A stretch of DNA of 64,000 nt from a virus, in IMG/VR virus record IMGVR_UViG_3300032242_001280; one strand, 5' to 3'. Each line of letters begins with the position of its first letter. Position 1 is the first letter of the stretch. The translations under genes and the position numbers were made by a program. Under the pieces are notes generated by a model that saw only the letters and a list, made by a program, of their open reading frames with translations, did no database searches and was not told the origin of the DNA. This document shows, piece by piece, positions 1,405 to 53,726 of the stretch.

Positions 1405-1437
1405 TTGCAGTGCAGTTAAAAAGATGTTGCAGCGCAA
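1405..1437. promoter_or_regulatory. Two TGC-N3-GCA boxes (PhaR/AniA-like)
   Basis: TGCagtGCA at 1406-1414 and TTGCagcGCAA at 1427-1437, 22 bp apart; the second overlaps the -35 element. Confidence 0.45.
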
Positions 1438-1455
1438 TAAATAGTGGCGTATAAT
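1427..1455 (+). promoter_or_regulatory. Sigma70-type promoter for the DUF1127 unit
   Basis: TTGCAG-N17-TATAAT. Confidence 0.7.
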
Positions 1456-1477
1456 GCATAACAAGTGGAGAAAAAAC

Positions 1478-12935: not shown

Positions 12936-13601
12936 CTAATGTGCCTGTTTTTGCGCTACTACGAAGTAACCTGTGTTATCTGAGCCAGTCTCTAATTTCT
13001 TTATGTTAAAAAAATTGCCTTCTTTGCCTTTTATATATAAGAACGATTTGCCATCAATTTCAATTACATATTCATAGTGTATTAATATAGTATAGCCATA
13101 TTTGCCAAGTAATTCAATAAGTTTTTCTTCAGGTAATTTACTAATGTATGTATCTTTTTTTATGTCTTCTGCAAAAATAAATTCAGCAGTTTGTTTTTTT
13201 AAAACATATTCAAAATCAACCAGTGGTAACACCTGTGAACACCATAATGTATCATATTTTAATTTTTTGTCAATAAAATCTTCTAATTTTATTTGATGAT
13301 CAACTACATTTATTGTTATTTTTTTATTTTTTAAAAAATAAAATTTATTTTTAAGCCATTTTTTTTGAAAATCAAAATATTTTTTATTAGGTTCAACTGA
13401 ATAAACTGTGTTTGTTTTACAAAAATCAAAAAAAGGTATAAATCGTCCTAGGCCGCTGCCGCCGTCAACTATTATTTTATTTTTTAAAATATTATTAATA
13501 ACATTAATTTTTGAAAGTTTTACAAAAAAATCTAATGAGATATTTGAAAAAAACGCATCATCGATGCCTTGTATATTAAACGGTTGAGTTAATTGGGTCA
13601 T
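12936..13601 (-). CDS. Class I SAM-dependent methyltransferase-like protein
   Basis: IVDGGSGLGRF (motif I), VYSVEPN (motif II), KYDTLWC; extremely AT-rich. Confidence 0.7.
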   Translation of the reverse strand: MTQLTQPFNIQGIDDAFFSNISLDFFVKLSKINVINNILKNKIIVDGGSGLGRFIPFFDFCKTNTVYSVEPNKKYFDFQKKWLKNKFYFLKNKKITINVVDHQIKLEDFIDKKLKYDTLWCSQVLPLVDFEYVLKKQTAEFIFAEDIKKDTYISKLPEEKLIELLGKYGYTILIHYEYVIEIDGKSFLYIKGKEGNFFNIKKLETGSDNTGYFVVAQKQAH

Positions 13602-14705
13602 TTAACTTCTATCTTTAATAAAATACTGGTTACTCATAACAGTTTGAGATATTAGTGAACCATGGCTTCTCATCACATTTAACCCATCAGTGTATATCTT
13701 AAAAATTTTATCCTCACTGTCTTTTATGTGATTATAATAAGAAAGTGTATCTGGTGATTTTTCATCGTTGCTAGAAAATAATTTATGTGTGCCATCAATG
13801 CTACTTATATGACTATGTAGCAGTTTGCATCTGCCCATAGCCAAATTCCAATCTTTATAGTACCTAGTATTAACGCCATTGCCTAATCTATTCTTGCCTT
13901 GTATAGCATGTACTAATCCGCCTGTCAATATTTTAAGTGATTCAAACCAACGAATTACCATATGACACTGTTTTATATGTAATTGCGGCAAATCGCTGCT
14001 ATAATAAAAATTTTCTTGGTCTGCTCCCATGAAATCAACGCCCATGTTGTCTGAACAAAACCCATACCATTTGCCATCTCGCAGTAACACTCTTGCTTTA
14101 TCAATGCCCATTATATCGCCACGAATACCTTTTTTATAACTTGCTTTCAAAAAATCATCCATAACCGTTGTAGCAAATATTCTGCTAGTCTTGCTGATTT
14201 TTAAGCTACAACTTGGGTGATAAATCCAGTCGCTGCCAAACTTACTATAAAAATTTTCTATAGCTTTAGATTCAACACGCACTACATTGATTTTTAAATT
14301 AGGATAATATGTATTTTTTATATAGTTGGCGTGTAATATAGCAACTTCAACTTCAGGATCATCAAAGAAATCACGACGATCATATATTAGTAATTCATCT
14401 AACAATATGTTGTTATCTACAAACGCACGAAGAATAGTATGACTATCATAGCCACTGCTGTACCATAGTGCCAAATAAGTATACTTGTCACGAACTTGTT
14501 GACAGCGAGTACGCATCAACTCACTCCAAGTTTCTTGCGGTTCCGCAGTCCAGTCTACCTTTGACCAAGTATCTTCCATCCAGTTAAATTGAATGTTGTT
14601 AAAATTTCCATTAGCTAATTCAATAGCACGAATTTTACTATATTCAATCGTATTTCCGTTGACTAGATAATAACTTTCGTTATTAGATATATGAAATTTG
14701 CTCAC
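13602..14705 (-). CDS. PP-loop/adenine-nucleotide alpha-hydrolase-like (asparagine synthetase-like) protein, paralogue 2
   Basis: LALWYSSGYDSHTIL, a variant of the SGGxDS PP-loop. Confidence 0.65.
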   Translation of the reverse strand: MSKFHISNNESYYLVNGNTIEYSKIRAIELANGNFNNIQFNWMEDTWSKVDWTAEPQETWSELMRTRCQQVRDKYTYLALWYSSGYDSHTILRAFVDNNILLDELLIYDRRDFFDDPEVEVAILHANYIKNTYYPNLKINVVRVESKAIENFYSKFGSDWIYHPSCSLKISKTSRIFATTVMDDFLKASYKKGIRGDIMGIDKARVLLRDGKWYGFCSDNMGVDFMGADQENFYYSSDLPQLHIKQCHMVIRWFESLKILTGGLVHAIQGKNRLGNGVNTRYYKDWNLAMGRCKLLHSHISSIDGTHKLFSSNDEKSPDTLSYYNHIKDSEDKIFKIYTDGLNVMRSHGSLISQTVMSNQYFIKDRS

Positions 14706-15808
14706 TTGTATACTCTATCTCGCAGATAATACTGCTTACTTAAAATTGTATTTTCAATGGCATTTCCATAACTTCTCATTCTTTTTAAACCGTCGTCATA
14801 TATTTTAAAAATTTTCTTTTCATTTTCTTTTATATGATTAAAATAGTTAATAAAATCTGGAGATTTTTCATCATTTGTGTGAAAAAATTTATGAGTTCCA
14901 TCAATACTAGTAATATTACTATGCATTAGCTTACACCTGCCCATTGCTAAATTCCAATCTTCATAGTGTTTTGTATGTATTCCGCCTAGTTTTCTATCTT
15001 TGCCTTGAATGTTATGCACTAGATTCCTTGTTAACTCTGGTAAACTTTCAAACCAATCAATTACCATATGGCATTGTTTTATATGAAGTTGCGGTAAGTC
15101 ATTGCTATAGTAAAAATTTTCTTGATTTGTTCCCATAAAATCATATGCGCTGCTATCTGAGCAAAATGCGTACCATTTACCGTTGCTTAGCAATACTTTT
15201 GCTTTATCAATACCCATTATATCGCCACGGATGCCCTTCTTATAGCTTGCACTTAAAAAATCATCCATAACAGTAGTAGCAAAAACTCTGCTTGTTTTAC
15301 TAATTTTTAAACTATAACCTGGATGGTATACCCAGTCTTCACCAAATTTATTATAAAAATTTTCTATTGAAGATGCATTGCTGCGAACAACATTAATTTT
15401 TAAATTAGGATAATATGTATTTTTTATATAATTTGCATGAGTAATTGCAACCGCAACTTCAGGGTCGTCAAAGAAATCACGGCGATCATATATTAGTAAT
15501 TCATCTAATAATATATCATTGTCAACGAAAGCACGAAGGATGGTGTGACTATCATAACCGCTGCTATACCATAGCGCCAAATAGGTATACTTGTCACGAA
15601 TTTGTTGACAACGGGTGCGCAAAAGTTCGCTCCACGATTCTTTTGGATCAATTGTCCAATCTATATTGGCCCAAGTATTTTCCATCCAACTAAATTGAAT
15701 TTTATTTAAATCGCCGTTAGCTAATTCAATAGCACGAAGTTTACTATATTCAATAGTATTATTGACTAGATAATAGCTATCATCATTGAATATATGAAAC
15801 TTAGTCAA
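14702..15808 (-). CDS. PP-loop/adenine-nucleotide alpha-hydrolase-like protein, paralogue 1
   Basis: Same motif; colinear with and highly similar to 13602-14705. Confidence 0.65.
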   Translation of the reverse strand: MTKFHIFNDDSYYLVNNTIEYSKLRAIELANGDLNKIQFSWMENTWANIDWTIDPKESWSELLRTRCQQIRDKYTYLALWYSSGYDSHTILRAFVDNDILLDELLIYDRRDFFDDPEVAVAITHANYIKNTYYPNLKINVVRSNASSIENFYNKFGEDWVYHPGYSLKISKTSRVFATTVMDDFLSASYKKGIRGDIMGIDKAKVLLSNGKWYAFCSDSSAYDFMGTNQENFYYSNDLPQLHIKQCHMVIDWFESLPELTRNLVHNIQGKDRKLGGIHTKHYEDWNLAMGRCKLMHSNITSIDGTHKFFHTNDEKSPDFINYFNHIKENEKKIFKIYDDGLKRMRSYGNAIENTILSKQYYLRDRVYK

Positions 15809-16400
15809 CCAATCCTAGTCCTTCAACACTGTTTAATCCTACTTGAATAGAGATTCGTGGACTAGGAATGTTTCGAACACCATGTAATATACGAGTTTGA
15901 ATAACAGTCCATGTTCGTAGCGGTATCTGGAAACTTTCAACGATATCTAATAAACTGTGATCGTTACAGCGGTCGCCATTGTTTCGCATAAGTGGTTTGC
16001 CGCGCTCATGGTAAAACACTGTCTTGTGATCCTCGCCACCGCCGTCAAGCAAATAAATTAAGCTATAATTACGGCTTAAATCACAATGTGCGCCATTTGT
16101 ATCCTTGCCATCTTTGCCTGTATCTGCCTTGGCAATACGAATATTCACTACACTTTTATCTGTAATATTAGCATATACCCAATCTCGCATCTCATCATCT
16201 AAACTATATGCTAAGTTTGGCGCATTAATTTTCTTAACACCATCGACGATAATAGTGTCAGTGGTAATTTTATTCCAATCTATTTGCCGTTTACCCTGTG
16301 GCATTTGTTCTAATTTTGTATCCATTTGTGCATATGCACGATCAATTAAGTGTTGCGGAACATGCGGCAAATCTTGTAAAATTTTATAAAACCAAGTCAT
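15801..16400 (-). CDS. 2OG-Fe(II) oxygenase-like (DSBH) protein
   Basis: HxD (GAHCD), YSLIYLL strand, distal H (ILHGV) and RxS (PRISIQ). Confidence 0.7.
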   Translation of the reverse strand: MTWFYKILQDLPHVPQHLIDRAYAQMDTKLEQMPQGKRQIDWNKITTDTIIVDGVKKINAPNLAYSLDDEMRDWVYANITDKSVVNIRIAKADTGKDGKDTNGAHCDLSRNYSLIYLLDGGGEDHKTVFYHERGKPLMRNNGDRCNDHSLLDIVESFQIPLRTWTVIQTRILHGVRNIPSPRISIQVGLNSVEGLGLVD

Positions 16401-16410
16401 AATAATTCCT

Positions 16411-17157
16411 TTAATAACTGTATTTCTTTTTTAAACTATTCAATAAACTATTAATAGTAACGCCTGTTAGTGCAATAACAAATAGTATAGCATACATCTG
16501 GTCAATATCTAATTTACTTTTAACATCAATAATATAACTTCCTAACCCAAAATATCCACCAATGCTTCCAAAAACTACTTCAAGACTAATAAGAATACGC
16601 CAGCTATTGGCCCAACTTGTGCTTGCAATTCCTATTAGGTTTCCAATAGCGGCTGGCATATAAACTTTAAGCAGTGCTTTAGAGCCACTCCATTGTAAAT
16701 TTCGCACATGTTTTTCCCATTGCTCATGCACTGATTCTATTGCTCGTAGAATTTGTAAGCCGCTAGTCCATACTATATTCCATACAATGATACTGTATAC
16801 GACCGCTGCGCCTAGCCCCATAAACAGGCTCATAAAGGGCACCAGCACGAAACTTGGCAGTGGATTGAAGTATGCGCAATAACGCTCAAATAGCGCCTTT
16901 AACCATTGATATTTCATACAAAGTAATATGATACCAATAGTAATAAACATACCAATAATATAACTTAATACAAGTGTTCGCATAGTATAATAGAAACTAA
17001 ACCAAAACTTGCTGGTCCATATCAGATCGTATAGCGCAGATAAAATACTTGTACTATCAGGAAATATAAGTGGTTCTTGCACAATAATGTATAAAAAATG
17101 CCATCCTATTAATATAATAGAAATAGCTAACGCATTATAAAGAAAGGATCGAAACAA
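16411..17157 (-). CDS. ABC transporter permease (NitT/TauT/SsuC-like)
   Basis: About six TM segments; PLPSFVLVP and GLGSYI motifs; in an operon with the ATPase and binding protein. Confidence 0.88.
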   Translation of the reverse strand: MFRSFLYNALAISIILIGWHFLYIIVQEPLIFPDSTSILSALYDLIWTSKFWFSFYYTMRTLVLSYIIGMFITIGIILLCMKYQWLKALFERYCAYFNPLPSFVLVPFMSLFMGLGAAVVYSIIVWNIVWTSGLQILRAIESVHEQWEKHVRNLQWSGSKALLKVYMPAAIGNLIGIASTSWANSWRILISLEVVFGSIGGYFGLGSYIIDVKSKLDIDQMYAILFVIALTGVTINSLLNSLKKKYSY

Positions 17158-17740
17158 TTAAATCATCCTCATGAGTTATATTTTTGAGACCATTCTTACT
17201 AAGCAAATATATGCTGTCACCTATTATTCGTGCTTCGGTTACATTGTGTGTAACCCATATAACGGTTAAATTTTCTTCGTGAACAATTTCACGGAAATCT
17301 TTTGCAACAGTTGCGCCAGTTAATCCATCTAGCGCACTCAGTGGTTCGTCGCATAGTAATATACGCAATCCACTGCACATTCCACGGATAAGTGTAAATC
17401 GCTGGCGTTGCCCGCCACTTAACTTTGATGGACTATAATCTAGATACGGTTCTAAGTTCCATCGTTTTACAAGATCAATATATGGTTTTTGACAAACTAA
17501 TTCTAAATTTTTTCGCACAGTCATCCATGAAAATAACTGATGACTTTCTTGAAAAATACGAAATTGGTTTTTAACTAGAATATCACTTTGGGTAGCAAGT
17601 GAAGTAAGCAAACTAGTCTTGCCCACTCCACTTGTTCCCATGATAACAGCAATTTCCCCTGTCTGCACCGACAAATCTATCGGCGCAAACAGTGGAGTAT
17701 TATCACTTACTGTAACTGTATGGTTACTAAGGTTAATCAC
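17135..17740 (-). CDS. ABC transporter ATP-binding subunit
   Basis: Walker A GTSGVGKT, signature LSGGQRQR, Walker B LLCDE, H-loop VTH. Confidence 0.95.
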   Translation of the reverse strand: MINLSNHTVTVSDNTPLFAPIDLSVQTGEIAVIMGTSGVGKTSLLTSLATQSDILVKNQFRIFQESHQLFSWMTVRKNLELVCQKPYIDLVKRWNLEPYLDYSPSKLSGGQRQRFTLIRGMCSGLRILLCDEPLSALDGLTGATVAKDFREIVHEENLTVIWVTHNVTEARIIGDSIYLLSKNGLKNITHEDDLIVSILSL

Positions 17741-18720
17741 TTGACTAACTTTTCATCCCATACCATGTCACTGTGCTTTTTATCTTTACCAGCGCCGCTT
17801 AGGATACCAGCACGATATAAGAAATCTATATATCGCAGCGTACTATCTGTCTTATACTGATAAACATCATGGTTTTCTTTCTTCTGTTCAACTAACTCAT
17901 TTAGTGTTGGTTCAACTACTTCGTCTTTTGTCATATAGGTAATCAGCATTGGGCGTGGATTCTTTTCAAATTCCGCGATAGCTGCCTTTTGTGCAGCAAC
18001 CCATGCACGAGCAAGTTTAGGATTTGCATCTAACCATTTTGTCGTAGAGTATACACTATTAAGAACACCTGTTGTTTTAGTTGGGTCTTCATTGTGTGCA
18101 ATAATATGCGCTCCTTTGCTGACAGCAATATTTTGCCATGGAACGCCAATAATACCGCAATCAATTTCAGGGTTTGTTTTAGTAATTTGTGCAAGTGCTT
18201 GATCACGAGGCATTACAACGATATTACTGTCAAACTTAGCATATTCTTTATCACCAAACTTTGCAGCAGTATATTGGCGCAATTGCATCTGTTCGCCGCT
18301 ATTCAAGCCTTTCATAGCAATTTTAGTGCTTGGTGTAATATCTTTTAACGATTTAATCTTAGGATTGCCGCATACTATCCACTGATCGTATTCTTCTGCG
18401 CCAGCCAATAGTTTAACCTTAGCTGGGTCTTTATCAAAAAGAATACCAAAAGCATTTGCTCCGCCAAATACAATATCAATTTGACCTAGCAAAAGTGCTT
18501 CGTTTGCTTTTGTTGCTTCAAGAATATCTACATAAGATACCTTGATATCATTAATTCCTTCTTTCTTGGCATATTCTGGAAGCAATTCAACGGTTTTATA
18601 TAGTAGTGGTTCGCTGCTTGCATACTTAATCATTCGATTGACACGAATTTCAGTTTCTGCATGCGCAACCGACGCAAGAGATAGTAATAGAGCGATAGTT
18701 GTTATTGTTCTGTTAAACAT
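17737..18720 (-). CDS. ABC transporter substrate-binding protein (NitT/TauT/SsuA-like)
   Basis: Signal peptide MFNRTITTIALLLSLASVAHA; EALLLGQIDI, IKSLKD and WLDANP motifs. AAGGAG RBS favours ATG 18720 over 18756. Confidence 0.88.
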   Translation of the reverse strand: MFNRTITTIALLLSLASVAHAETEIRVNRMIKYASSEPLLYKTVELLPEYAKKEGINDIKVSYVDILEATKANEALLLGQIDIVFGGANAFGILFDKDPAKVKLLAGAEEYDQWIVCGNPKIKSLKDITPSTKIAMKGLNSGEQMQLRQYTAAKFGDKEYAKFDSNIVVMPRDQALAQITKTNPEIDCGIIGVPWQNIAVSKGAHIIAHNEDPTKTTGVLNSVYSTTKWLDANPKLARAWVAAQKAAIAEFEKNPRPMLITYMTKDEVVEPTLNELVEQKKENHDVYQYKTDSTLRYIDFLYRAGILSGAGKDKKHSDMVWDEKLVK

Positions 18721-18934
18721 TTTTTTCTCCTTCCATAAAGTTAACAGATAACACAAAAAACATCAATATAATTGATGCGTATAGTATTAAATTTTTAATG
18801 AAAGGAGCTTGTAGCATTGGTGGGACTAGCTACTACGGTCGGCGTTTGGTAAGGCATTACTTACGGTACAGAACTTGCGTTCTTCGCGTCGATTATGAGT
18901 TCCGAGGTCACCAAATGTGGCCTTGCTCCAAAAT
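18721..18934 (-). promoter_or_regulatory. Riboswitch-like structured 5' leader
   Basis: Multi-hairpin domain closed by GGAGC/GCUCC; the 3' strand can alternatively pair with the Shine-Dalgarno (10 bp); a terminator-like hairpin with U-tract lies between them. Confidence 0.6.
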
Positions 18935-18937
18935 TAT

Positions 18938-19576
18938 TTATGTTGGTGTTGCAGCAATAGAAATTTCTTGAATATAATGTTTTGTATCATTAATAATATC
19001 TGATAGCTGTTTTTCTATATCATTAACTTTTATATGTGGAGTACTGTAAAATTTTTCATCTGATTCAGGTGTCCACTTATTGCCTAATCTATTTTTATTA
19101 AAATTTGTTTTAATTTTTCCAACTCTTAAAAGCGTCAATCCTATTAGTGGGTTGTTTATTTCTCTGCGCAGCGCGTCTACAAATGCTTTTTGTGAATACC
19201 TTGATAACCCATATATTAAATGATTGTGCATTATTCTGTCTGTGTTGTGTACACTTCCTACAAATATAGCTTTACTCCATTTATTGCCTCGTTGGGTTAA
19301 CCAACGATGAGTAAACTTAATTTGATTTACAAGATTAGTATTCAGTGTAAGTTCTATATCTTCCCATGATTTTTCAACAAAAGGAGTAAACCCATTTGGA
19401 TCAACGCCAGCACACATGACAAAATAATCATATTGAGATAAGTCAGTATCATATGACACATTGTTTATGTTAAACGCCTCTCTACCAACAACAGTTGTAT
19501 CAATATCATTGTTTAACAATACTTCTGAAATTTTTTTACCAACACCTGTTGTGCCGCCAATAACGATAGCTTTCAT
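18938..19576 (-). CDS. Short-chain dehydrogenase/reductase (SDR)-like protein
   Basis: MKAIVIGGTTGVG Rossmann motif, CAG, NTNL, YxxxR instead of YxxxK. ATGA overlap with the upstream gene fixes the start at 19576. Confidence 0.8.
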   Translation of the reverse strand: MKAIVIGGTTGVGKKISEVLLNNDIDTTVVGREAFNINNVSYDTDLSQYDYFVMCAGVDPNGFTPFVEKSWEDIELTLNTNLVNQIKFTHRWLTQRGNKWSKAIFVGSVHNTDRIMHNHLIYGLSRYSQKAFVDALRREINNPLIGLTLLRVGKIKTNFNKNRLGNKWTPESDEKFYSTPHIKVNDIEKQLSDIINDTKHYIQEISIAATPT

Positions 19577-20565
19577 AGCTTTCCTATAATTTCTTGCAGT
19601 GTCATTACTTCCCAACCACTACATAGCACACCTTCGCGGCGCATTTGGTCAATTACTAATGCCTCGTATAGTATATTTTCACTTGTATTTTCATAATGTT
19701 TTTTATCTTTTATAGTATTCCATATATTGTTTGCTATCATTATTTGTTTTGAGTTGTGTGTTATAAACTGTGGATGCATAAAATTAACTTCACCCCAGTC
19801 AAAATCAGCTATATTAGTTGATTCCATATCGGCAGCAAATTTTGATATAAATTCAATATCTAATATTTCTCTCATACTATAATTAAAAACATATTTTCCA
19901 GTAACATAGACATCGTTTTCTTTTCGATCATACGCAGTTGAATCGCCGCCAATGTCATCTCGTTCCCTGATAGTATTTCCGTAATTATATCTTTCTCTGA
20001 ACATATCTATTGTATCTTGCGTTAATACATGATTATTATACGGATAGATTCTTTCCCAATTATCTACCATAAAATTTCTACCTTCAATCCAGTCTTTGTC
20101 TAATGGATTGCCATATTCTTCATCATTTAACAATCTTATGTTCCACAATCCTTTTGAATGAAGATTTATGGCTCCTAATTTGCGATGATATTCACTGTCT
20201 TCGTCATGTACATTGATAATAACGGGTTCTTCTTCAATTCGCATTATCCAAAAAACACTATTATGCCATCCCTTCATCCAATTTTTTTGATTTTGATCAA
20301 AAGTAACATTGCCGCGAAAACCAACTGGATATATTGTACCTGTTGACCAACGATGTTTAATTATACTTTGAATAATAAATTCAATAGTTTGGTGCGCTGG
20401 TTTCTTAATATGTACATGCGCACTGCCATCTGTTTTGAAAGGGGTATCTACTGTTGTATTGGCGGTTTTACGATTTGCTTTGCATAATGCCCAGTGCAAA
20501 TAACTTCCATAATATCCGCCTGGATATAATAGCCATACATTTTTATCAAACATCATATTATCCAC
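19573..20565 (-). CDS. Hypothetical protein (N-terminus reminiscent of a sulfotransferase/P-loop-like fold)
   Basis: 330-aa ORF overlapping both neighbours; WLLYPGGYYGSYLHWAL. Confidence 0.55.
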   Translation of the reverse strand: MDNMMFDKNVWLLYPGGYYGSYLHWALCKANRKTANTTVDTPFKTDGSAHVHIKKPAHQTIEFIIQSIIKHRWSTGTIYPVGFRGNVTFDQNQKNWMKGWHNSVFWIMRIEEEPVIINVHDEDSEYHRKLGAINLHSKGLWNIRLLNDEEYGNPLDKDWIEGRNFMVDNWERIYPYNNHVLTQDTIDMFRERYNYGNTIRERDDIGGDSTAYDRKENDVYVTGKYVFNYSMREILDIEFISKFAADMESTNIADFDWGEVNFMHPQFITHNSKQIMIANNIWNTIKDKKHYENTSENILYEALVIDQMRREGVLCSGWEVMTLQEIIGKL

Positions 20566-25158: not shown

Positions 25159-25992
25159 TTAAATTGTTTCGCTGCCACTAGGTAAATCAGATGATCTTAT
25201 AGAATTATCGGTCTGACGAGTGTAACTTGGGTTGAGACCGTTTTGTTCCAAAATATCATCTCTGAGGTTTTGATTACGCTTTTCAACATTAAGAACTCTA
25301 GTAAAGCTATTGGTAATAGTAGCAGTATAATAAGCAAAAGGATTATTAGATTTGCTTTCGTCAAATTGTAGTCCTACTTGTGATAGTTGCAACAATGCTT
25401 GGCTACGCATCTCGTCATTGTATGTATAACCACGCCAGTTGCCTTTTGAGCCATATCGTTCACATAGTTTAATAAACATGCGAGCCAACATAGGTGTCAT
25501 TTTACCATGGTCTTTATTAAACCATCCATTAACAATACCGCCTTCCCAATGTGATTTTGCTACACATACCAGTTCATCATTCTCATTGAATCTATAATGC
25601 TGAAATGGTGGAAAATTAACTTTGGTATAGTGATCTGCTGTTGCTTTTGGAGATTTCTTACGGCCTGGCGCTAGTGGAACATGATCCCAACATATAATTC
25701 TAAAAACAAGCTCTGTCTTTGTAATTTTATGCCAATCTATTGAATGGTCATCTAGTTTACTTTTTACGCCACTGAGCGTTTTTGCTTCCCATGCTAGTTT
25801 AGCTATTCTGTCAGCGCGGTTTCTTTTTGCCTCTGCAATGGTTCGCTGATTTACTTTACTAAGACTAGGTAAAATAATATCATATTGTTTGTCTTCATCA
25901 GTTAAAAAACTACAATAAGTGTTTTTACTTTTATGAATTTCTCTTAATAGTTCTTTGTTGGTGAGGTAAGGAGTTCTTTTTGCTATTGTCAT
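25159..25992 (-). CDS. gp55: Late-transcription sigma factor, gp55-like
   Basis: YLTNKELL, NWRGYTYNDEM, FDESKSNNPFAYYT motifs; next to gp47/gp46 as in T4. Confidence 0.9.
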   Translation of the reverse strand: MTIAKRTPYLTNKELLREIHKSKNTYCSFLTDEDKQYDIILPSLSKVNQRTIAEAKRNRADRIAKLAWEAKTLSGVKSKLDDHSIDWHKITKTELVFRIICWDHVPLAPGRKKSPKATADHYTKVNFPPFQHYRFNENDELVCVAKSHWEGGIVNGWFNKDHGKMTPMLARMFIKLCERYGSKGNWRGYTYNDEMRSQALLQLSQVGLQFDESKSNNPFAYYTATITNSFTRVLNVEKRNQNLRDDILEQNGLNPSYTRQTDNSIRSSDLPSGSETI

Positions 25993-53039: not shown

Positions 53040-53726
53040 ATGAATAATATACCAAAAGATAAACCAATAAATAATACCAATGAAACCGTCAGGGAAAAAC
53101 CAATGACTAAGCCAAACGAACAAACTGGTCTCTTGCTTCAGGGACATATTAAAATACATGATCCTACAACAGGTGAAGTTTTCATAAACAAGCGCAATGC
53201 AATTCACTATGAAAATTTTTCATTGGCACTTGCACAAAGTATTTCAGATGTTGGTCAAGGATTAATTGAAGGAATGGCGTTTGGTAATGGCGGAACTTCA
53301 GTAGACCCAACTGGCGTAATAACTTATCTTCCAACTAATACTAGTGGCAGTAACAGTAGTTTATATAATCAAACATTTTATAAAGTAGTTGATGGAAATA
53401 GTGCGTTTAATCTTGATCCTACACGCAATAATATTCAAATTCGTCATACAACTGGCACTGTTTATAGCGATATTTTCATCACTTGTACGCTAGATTATGG
53501 TGAGCCAAGCGGTCAACAAGCATTTGATAATACTACTAACTTTAATGATAGTTTTGTATTTGACGAGCTTGGATTAAAAGTTTCTAACGGCAGCGGAACT
53601 ACCAACACTGGAAATTTAATTACTCATGTTGTTTTCCATCCTATTCAAAAAAGTCTTAATCGCTTGATCCAAGTAGACTATACAGTTCGTGTTCAAACAC
53701 TTACTAACCTAACATCGCAGGTATAA
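53040..53726 (+). CDS. Virion structural protein (baseplate/fibre attachment)
   Basis: GHIKIHDP..GE, NAIHYEN, FDELGL and HPIQKSLNR motifs; late-operon context. Confidence 0.65.
   Translation: MNNIPKDKPINNTNETVREKPMTKPNEQTGLLLQGHIKIHDPTTGEVFINKRNAIHYENFSLALAQSISDVGQGLIEGMAFGNGGTSVDPTGVITYLPTNTSGSNSSLYNQTFYKVVDGNSAFNLDPTRNNIQIRHTTGTVYSDIFITCTLDYGEPSGQQAFDNTTNFNDSFVFDELGLKVSNGSGTTNTGNLITHVVFHPIQKSLNRLIQVDYTVRVQTLTNLTSQV

Follow-up and report, generated by a model that had tools for sequence, protein, structure and literature searches.

Does the DNA directly upstream of an ABC importer operon carried by a phage encode a regulatory RNA and, if so, could that RNA be a riboswitch? The question is raised by the window, a stretch of viral DNA of 64,000 nucleotides (IMG/VR record IMGVR_UViG_3300032242_001280), for which an earlier note had proposed, from the letters alone, a minus-strand riboswitch-like leader with an anti-Shine-Dalgarno (anti-SD) switch in front of such an operon. 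Riboswitches are rare in phages, and the known ones are copies of bacterial classes (PMC9004378). In this study, we report the comparison of the leader with its relatives, and describe its covarying structure, its conserved complementarity to the Shine-Dalgarno (SD) stretch and the promoter motifs that flank it. With somewhat better than even confidence, we propose that the leader is a new, phage-restricted, riboswitch-like element which acts in cis on late transcripts only, as a ligand-responsive translational ON switch.

The phage, the importer cassette and the range of the leader

The window comes from a T4-like jumbo phage, as indicated by genes for a major head protein, a portal, SbcCD-like gp46/47, a baseplate hub and a gp55-like late sigma factor (25159-25992). 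Its head protein shares 67.6% identity with the counterpart in the 287-kb Pseudomonas phage PA5oct group, and the clade that carries the leader is one of uncultured freshwater jumbo phages. No match was found among 50,697 isolate phage records when the 4.2-kb region was searched with blastn and the binding protein with tblastn, and the complete cassette of ABC importer, 2OG oxygenase and PP-loop proteins has no counterpart in that collection.

The operon begins with the gene for a substrate-binding protein (Table 1). The structure model of this protein (pLDDT 91) resembles SsuA, TauA, ThiY, NrtA and PqqT about equally (TM ≤0.67), so that the known binders resembled are those of sulfonate, taurine, thiamin precursor, nitrate and PQQ, with no clear favourite. 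The PP-loop model gave weak matches to LarE, MnmA and beta-lactam synthetase. Searches of the cassette against Pfam, NCBIfam and PHROGs returned nothing more specific, and its enzymes can be placed at the superfamily level only. The two tandem PP-loop-like paralogues (13602-15808) are 76% identical and share an SGYDS motif; in most relatives that were examined, a single copy was seen.

Homologues of the binding protein obtained by protein searches (42-98% identity) were all located in freshwater viral or metagenome contigs, and the RNA domain was present 5' of every homologue with upstream DNA to examine, including five contigs added by exact protein look-up. Wherever the synteny of the cassette was examined in relatives, the leader preceded the phage ABC importer operon, and the association described for the window in the earlier note thus holds in its relatives as well. 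A search of 232 kb of related phage DNA with the covariance model R1 recovered a single copy in each phage, in every case 5' of the binding-protein gene, and the same was seen in five more contigs; no second R1 copy was found in the window. A strict DNA pattern of the core matched 17 contigs in IMG/VR, with the same operon in all those examined, and gave no match in 185,579 prokaryote genomes. The RNA domain was also absent upstream of two bacterial homologues (26% identity, GntR-type context). The RNA family therefore ranges over one phage clade and one operon. Since the family is this narrow, kinship inflates the shuffle statistics given below, and a protein partner of the RNA is possible.

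In L001-L003, phages with a binding protein 98% identical to the one encoded in the window, the SDR gene (18938-19615) is missing and homology restarts exactly at the ATAAATA motif. In other relatives, the gene upstream of the leader is an oxygenase paralogue or lies on the reverse strand. Because the upstream genes differ between relatives, the leader belongs with the downstream operon and not with the upstream gene. With these three arrangements, the position just upstream of the leader is also a hotspot of gene exchange.

Structure and covariation of the leader RNA

The comparison set consisted of 22 distinct leaders located 5' of homologous binding-protein genes, spanning the full 42-98% range of protein identity, and the structure model was built using RNAalifold and hand curation. 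Covariance model R1 matched the window with 77.6 bits (E = 3e-15) over positions 18801-18929, and the domain measures 104-126 nt across the relatives. When the window was folded on its own, the fold was compared with shuffled sequences and gave z = -2.24 for the minus strand and z = -1.26 for the plus strand. A single-sequence fold thus beats shuffles only modestly, and the case consequently rests on the comparison with relatives.

According to the comparative model, the core is a four-way junction of P1, P2, P3 and P6 with linkers of 0-2 nt, and P3 continues through P3b and P3c to a three-way junction bearing the variable hairpins P4 and P5. The elements named in the earlier note were all recovered on the minus strand at the same coordinates. 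Its P1 and its hairpins stand, but the long-range helix P3/P3b/P3c, which makes the four-way junction, had been missed.

Table 1 Features of the leader and of the importer cassette, with positions in the window
Feature	Position	Strand	Remarks
ATAAATA, predicted gp55-type late promoter	18935-18941	-	Invariant in 22/22 leaders despite differing upstream genes
Aptamer-like domain	18804-18929	-	126 nt in the window; R1 hit and covariation
P1 (5 bp)	18929-18925 / 18808-18804	-	Compensatory changes in 3/5 pairs
P2 hairpin	18923-18917 / 18911-18905	-	Invariant C.A mismatch; loop often GNRA
Long-range helix P3/P3b/P3c	18836-18904	-	From RNAalifold; encloses P4 and P5
P3	18904-18902 / 18838-18836	-	Invariant helix
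P3b	18892-18890 / 18841-18839	-	Pair types CG, UA, GC, AU
P3c	18888-18887 / 18844-18843	-	Follows a one-by-one mismatch
P4	18883-18879 / 18874-18870	-	GCAA loop
P5	18864-18860 / 18853-18849	-	
P6 hairpin	18833-18829 / 18815-18811	-	
P1 3' strand (18808-18804) overlapping anti-SD (18807-18798)	18798-18808	-	10-bp duplex with 18736-18727, -14.0 kcal/mol
Linker hairpin	18752-18795	-	Inner stem 18777-18771 / 18767-18761, then U6 (18760-18755), within an outer stem
Predicted sigma-70 extended -10 promoter	18738-18766	-	-35 at 18766-18761, 17-nt spacer, TG at 18746-18745, -10 at 18743-18738
SD GGAG (18730-18727) and upstream bases pairing with the anti-SD tail	18727-18736	-	
Substrate-binding protein gene, first of the operon	17737-18720	-	NitT/TauT; SsuA/TauA-like fold; Sec signal peptide
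Rest of the cassette	12936-17740	-	ABC ATPase, permease, 2OG-Fe(II) oxygenase-like, two PP-loop-like paralogues, methyltransferase-like

In the model-fitted alignment of the 22 leaders, 93.3% of the cells were paired and compensatory double changes were present in 18 of the 34 pairs, so that the structured domain proposed in the earlier note is conserved and covaries. When the pairing partners were slid by 1-3 columns, pairing fell to 25-48% (≤48.5%), and none of 500 shuffles of the 22 leaders matched the observed covariation score. In a MAFFT alignment of 18 sequences, 91.8% of the cells pair, with double changes in 11 pairs. The leaders are kin and the shuffle statistics therefore overstate independence, while the slid controls and the counts of distinct pair types are unaffected. 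The bases of the junctions and internal loops remain invariant while the downstream protein drops to 42% identity. Compensatory changes in P2, which is invariant in all other leaders, were found in the divergent copy L054 (48.7 bits); a G.U intermediate was seen in P1 of the relative L053, and P4 has A-U in the window where L001 has G.U.

The strand was addressed in the alignment by counting G.U against A.C cells, which gave near parity, 17 versus 18, the A.C cells arising from register shifts in P4 and P5 of the window-type sequences. The minus strand as the sense strand is supported by both promoters, the SD pairing, the GNRA loops in P2 and P4 and the two G.U cases above.

All 18 scored sequences (alignment A7) carry a CCCAC- or CCAC-like motif, located in the internal loop of P3 (18893-18901), in the P6 loop (18820-18824) or in both; in each of these sequences, the motif is present at one site when absent from the other. 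In L054, which was found later, just a CACA-like stretch is seen by eye in its place. A search for a complementary partner of the motif found none. From its placement, the motif looks like a tertiary-contact or ligand-site element that could be supplied from either position.

These observations bear on whether there is an RNA element at all. The region could instead be a conserved DNA-level site (a promoter region, a recombination junction or a protein-binding site), or the fold could be due to chance. Such a reading would account for homology that begins exactly at ATAAATA among phages with different upstream genes, for the presence of two predicted promoters in the region and for the modest single-sequence z-score. 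It does not account for the compensatory doubles in more than half of the pairs or for the variation in stem and loop length around invariant junctions, which together are a signature of RNA, nor for the collapse of pairing in the slid controls. The covariation evidence brings a pure DNA site or a chance fold close to refutation, and we find it hardly credible.

Promoter motifs, anti-SD pairing and the linker

The TAAATA that the earlier note had observed at 18940-18935, overlapping the stop codon of the SDR gene, was confirmed and proved to be part of the longer conserved motif ATAAATA. The spacing between this motif and P1 is 4-6 nt, mostly 5, which very probably places the predicted late transcription start (+1) at 18929, the first G of P1. 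The late promoter of T4 spans -13 to -6 and reads TATAAATA, in which conservation of the first T is weak (PMC1524935), and ATAAATA precedes structural genes in jumbo phages with a gp55-like sigma factor (PMC5259590). In the window, ATAAATA occurs 9 times against 37.8 expected (about four-fold depleted) and TATAAATA once against 11.6 expected (about ten-fold depleted); this depletion fits the avoidance of stray late promoters. Seven of the nine ATAAATA copies are located shortly upstream of structural genes, in the sense orientation. The motif is thus found without a -35 element, in a phage that encodes a gp55-like sigma factor and with use at late genes, as in T4-type late promoters. The likeness to these promoters extends to the motif, the sigma gene and the placement before structural genes; the difference is that the copy studied here is predicted to drive the structured non-coding leader of an accessory importer and not a virion gene.

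Two other copies of the motif were noted in passing. Downstream of the copy at 53067-53073, which lies within a listed ORF of 228 aa (53040-53726), there are an SD-like stretch and an ATG, and this ATG may be the true start of the gene. The only copy that is not before a structural gene (window 1425-1460) lies in the spacer of a TTGCAG-N17-TATAAT promoter, ahead of a small plus-strand gene.

A second promoter motif is located within the leader. The pattern TTGnnn-N14-TGn-TAnnnT is present with identical spacing in 22/22 leaders, with TTG, TG and TA...T as invariant columns; in a stricter consensus scan, the window copy fails, with 3/6 in the -10. GGAG follows the -10 by 7-9 nt in 21 of the 22 leaders, and the early mRNA should accordingly start at or next to the SD (predicted +1 at about 18731-18733). 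The earlier note had set a transcription start downstream of 18800 against its own reading. A conserved, predicted sigma-70-like promoter does lie there; it is read here as the source of an additional, switch-free transcript, and the leader transcript stays. Given this conserved internal promoter, the operon could be expressed without the leader, and early mRNAs should lack the switch while late mRNAs should carry it.

In 20 of the 22 leaders, the extended -10 region (18741-18748) could also pair over 7-9 bp with codons 2-4 of the gene for the binding protein (18709-18716, minus strand), and in one group a C-G pair of this complementarity is replaced by U-A. The pairing could form a clamp around the SD and start codon in the late read-through RNA, and could equally be a coincidence of promoter and codon constraints. 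An inverted repeat over the -35 was considered as a repressor operator and rejected, as the spacing of its half-sites varies in relatives (about 3-7 nt).

The anti-SD forms a duplex of 8-11 bp with the SD stretch in all 18 leaders scored. A leader's own anti-SD:SD duplex averages -12.3 kcal/mol, against -10.2 kcal/mol for swapped partners, and none of 5000 permutations was as good. The bases beyond the anti-SD core covary, in that the tail differs between relatives and compensating differences are seen upstream of GGAG. In L054, the SD is a different one, and the anti-SD matches it in a shifted register. The anti-SD overlapping the P1 3' strand, which the earlier note had described for the window, therefore keeps its pairing with the SD in every homologue and covaries with it. 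The covarying bases upstream of GGAG are located between the -10 and the predicted early +1 and are thus expected only in the late read-through RNA, which favours pairing in cis.

The anti-SD and the SD are separated by a linker. The hairpin followed by U6 that the earlier note had placed here is present in the window, but it lies inside a longer stem and is found in just 12 of the 22 leaders, where its loop varies; in the remaining 10, the linker is 35-37 nt long and has no stable hairpin. In the OFF state, leaders with the hairpin give a single long, irregular hairpin that is closed at the base by the anti-SD:SD helix. As an intrinsic terminator the hairpin falls short, since its stem is A/U-rich, it was not called by the terminator scan and it is absent from the 10 leaders mentioned. 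The hairpin and U6 could terminate late transcripts before the SD where they occur, although a compaction or pause element, or a leaky terminator, is more likely than the end of a separate RNA. In the outer stem of the long-linker leaders (L053-L057, L040, L014 and others), both sides change in step; in L014, U is replaced by C on the 3' side and the facing A by G on the 5' side. Such in-step changes, as read from the aligned sequences, indicate RNA-level selection across the promoter spacer.

The linker is where an independent late small RNA would have to end. Such an RNA would extend over about 175 nt, from the late promoter through the hairpin and U6, and might act in trans, for instance by silencing the early importer mRNA through pairing with its SD, or by titrating out a factor. 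In favour of it are a predicted promoter of its own, a structured body, a single-stranded pyrimidine stretch with complementarity to the SD and, in 12/22 cases, a hairpin with a U run. The terminator-like hairpin is, however, missing from the remaining 10 leaders and, besides being A/U-rich and passed over by the terminator scan, is embedded in an outer stem whose formation requires read-through RNA. Moreover, the covarying bases upstream of GGAG would be missing from the predicted early mRNA, which again favours cis pairing. A separate trans-acting RNA is thus judged improbable, and the leader is treated below as a cis element.

When late leaders were folded from the predicted +1 to the start codon, the anti-SD (OFF) state was the minimum free energy structure in 18/18, and the P1 (ON) state lay 0.3-5.8 kcal/mol above it in the 18 leaders folded. 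The ON-switch logic put forward in the earlier note fits these computed energies of the P1 and anti-SD states. The same late leader with its anti-SD might nevertheless work without a small-molecule ligand, either as a protein-bound operator, as for gp32 or RegA of T4, or as a constitutive 5' stabiliser and silencer that keeps the late read-through RNA from making the importer. The restriction to one clade and one operon is what would be expected of a lineage-specific RNA-protein pair. Stems at the 5' end protect mRNA, and P1 begins at the predicted +1. By computation, all 18 leaders are OFF in their ground state, and the predicted early promoter would already provide unregulated expression. 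On the other hand, a four-way junction of >100 nt with invariant junction bases and covarying outer stems of variable length exceeds the known needs of operators and stabilisers. A promoter that serves solely to make a silenced transcript is hard to explain, and the closeness of the ON and OFF energies in every homologue suggests a real switch. A leader that works without a ligand is therefore considered rather unlikely, though worth keeping in view.

The proposed switch and its comparison with known RNAs

The mechanism that we favour, a ligand-responsive switch confined to late transcripts, would proceed as follows. RNA polymerase with the phage gp55-like late sigma factor would start at about 18929, the first base of P1, and the nascent RNA would fold into an aptamer with a four-way junction (P1, P2, P3, P6) and a distal three-way junction (P4, P5). 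As long as nothing keeps P1 closed, 18807-18798 would pair with the SD stretch at 18736-18727 and translation of the binding protein would be blocked; translation of the overlapping ABC genes would probably be blocked too in this OFF state. Where the linker hairpin is present, it would bring the anti-SD and SD strands together. A bound ligand would lock P1 and thereby free the SD, giving a translational ON switch. The ligand would most likely be a small molecule tied to the cargo of the importer or to the pathway of the SDR, 2OG-oxygenase and PP-loop enzymes. Early in infection, the host-type extended -10 promoter in the leader would produce an mRNA from about 18731, without aptamer and anti-SD, and its translation would be uncontrolled. 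ON switches on importers are less common than OFF switches.

The late-phase ON switch is probably under ligand control. We are more tentative, at a little under even confidence, about the fuller proposal that the leader is a true riboswitch class found in phages only, in which a new aptamer fold senses the cargo or a pathway intermediate of an import-and-modify cassette and is time-gated to the late, gp55-driven phase by the internal promoter bypass. The new feature is the wiring, namely an aptamer at the predicted late +1 that is bypassed by a predicted internal host-type promoter. The tandem order of late promoter, aptamer, early promoter and SD suggests RNA-based control confined to one phase of infection. 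If this is true, a phage-only class with its own fold at the +1 of a late promoter would mean that phages evolve metabolite sensors of their own. The identity of the ligand would give a first handle on what the cassette imports and modifies, and the RNA, being compact with well-defined helices, is directly testable in vitro without culture of the host.

With respect to what defines a riboswitch, the leader has a conserved, structured aptamer with covariation and conserved junction bases, and the pairing in its expression platform excludes an aptamer helix, as the anti-SD overlaps the P1 3' strand. With regard to a position in the 5' UTR, the late motif puts the predicted +1 at P1, and the predicted internal promoter is present as well. 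Computationally, the leader has three hallmarks of a riboswitch, that is, a covarying complex aptamer, a fixed operon association and a platform that shares a strand with P1.

When the whole window was searched against Rfam 15 (4227 models, including all curated riboswitch classes), no match reached the gathering thresholds. With searches up to E = 10 on three divergent copies (the window, L007 and L015), no consistent match over the aptamer was found; the weak matches (freshwater-2, preQ1-II and a miRNA) fall on the SD and linker only, 25-70 bits under threshold. The earlier note had recognised no consensus of TPP, SAM, cobalamin, ZTP or guanidine-I/ykkC riboswitches, and the Infernal-type search likewise finds no family over the aptamer. 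The leader may be among the 8,495 unnamed candidate structured RNAs of a 2023 screen of IMG/VR (PMC10690425). Having no match to known families, the RNA is, on the comparative data, a strong candidate for a new riboswitch class. A tRNA- or tmRNA-like cloverleaf was also considered and rejected, as ARAGORN found no such gene in the window.

Several known systems share part of the picture. Guanidine-I (ykkC) is an ON switch class found before ABC transporters of the NitT/TauT type. The phage leader, however, has no match to RF00442 or related models to E = 10 in the three divergent copies, differs in helix layout and conserved bases, and is confined to phages. The NMT1 motif (xanthine riboswitch) was named for its association with genes of the NMT1 domain, and the binding protein encoded here matches NMT1_2 weakly; that motif is a small hairpin with an internal loop, and the leader has no cmscan match to it.

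Among phages, glnA/glutamine riboswitches are present in T4-like marine phages, in which riboswitch-type RNAs have been described as rare (PMC9004378). These are copies of a bacterial class, whereas the RNA reported here has no bacterial counterpart in the 185,579 genomes searched and is tied to a predicted late promoter. The translational operators of T4 (gp32, gp43 and RegA sites) are also RNA elements of phage 5' leaders that control translation initiation (PMC3014915). They are short hairpins, pseudoknots or linear protein-bound sites, in contrast to the covarying multi-junction domain of 104-126 nt with its anti-SD alternative described here.

In the add adenine riboswitch of Vibrio vulnificus, a translational ON switch, ligand-stabilised P1 frees the SD. 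The two systems differ in fold, add being a purine fold with a three-way junction and the leader combining a four-way with a three-way junction and having no Rfam purine match. In both, the P1 3' strand either closes P1 with the 5' strand or joins a helix in which the SD is buried, and the two states are a few kcal/mol apart, in the leader by computed energies. By analogy, the proposed switch logic of the phage leader matches that of the add ON switch.
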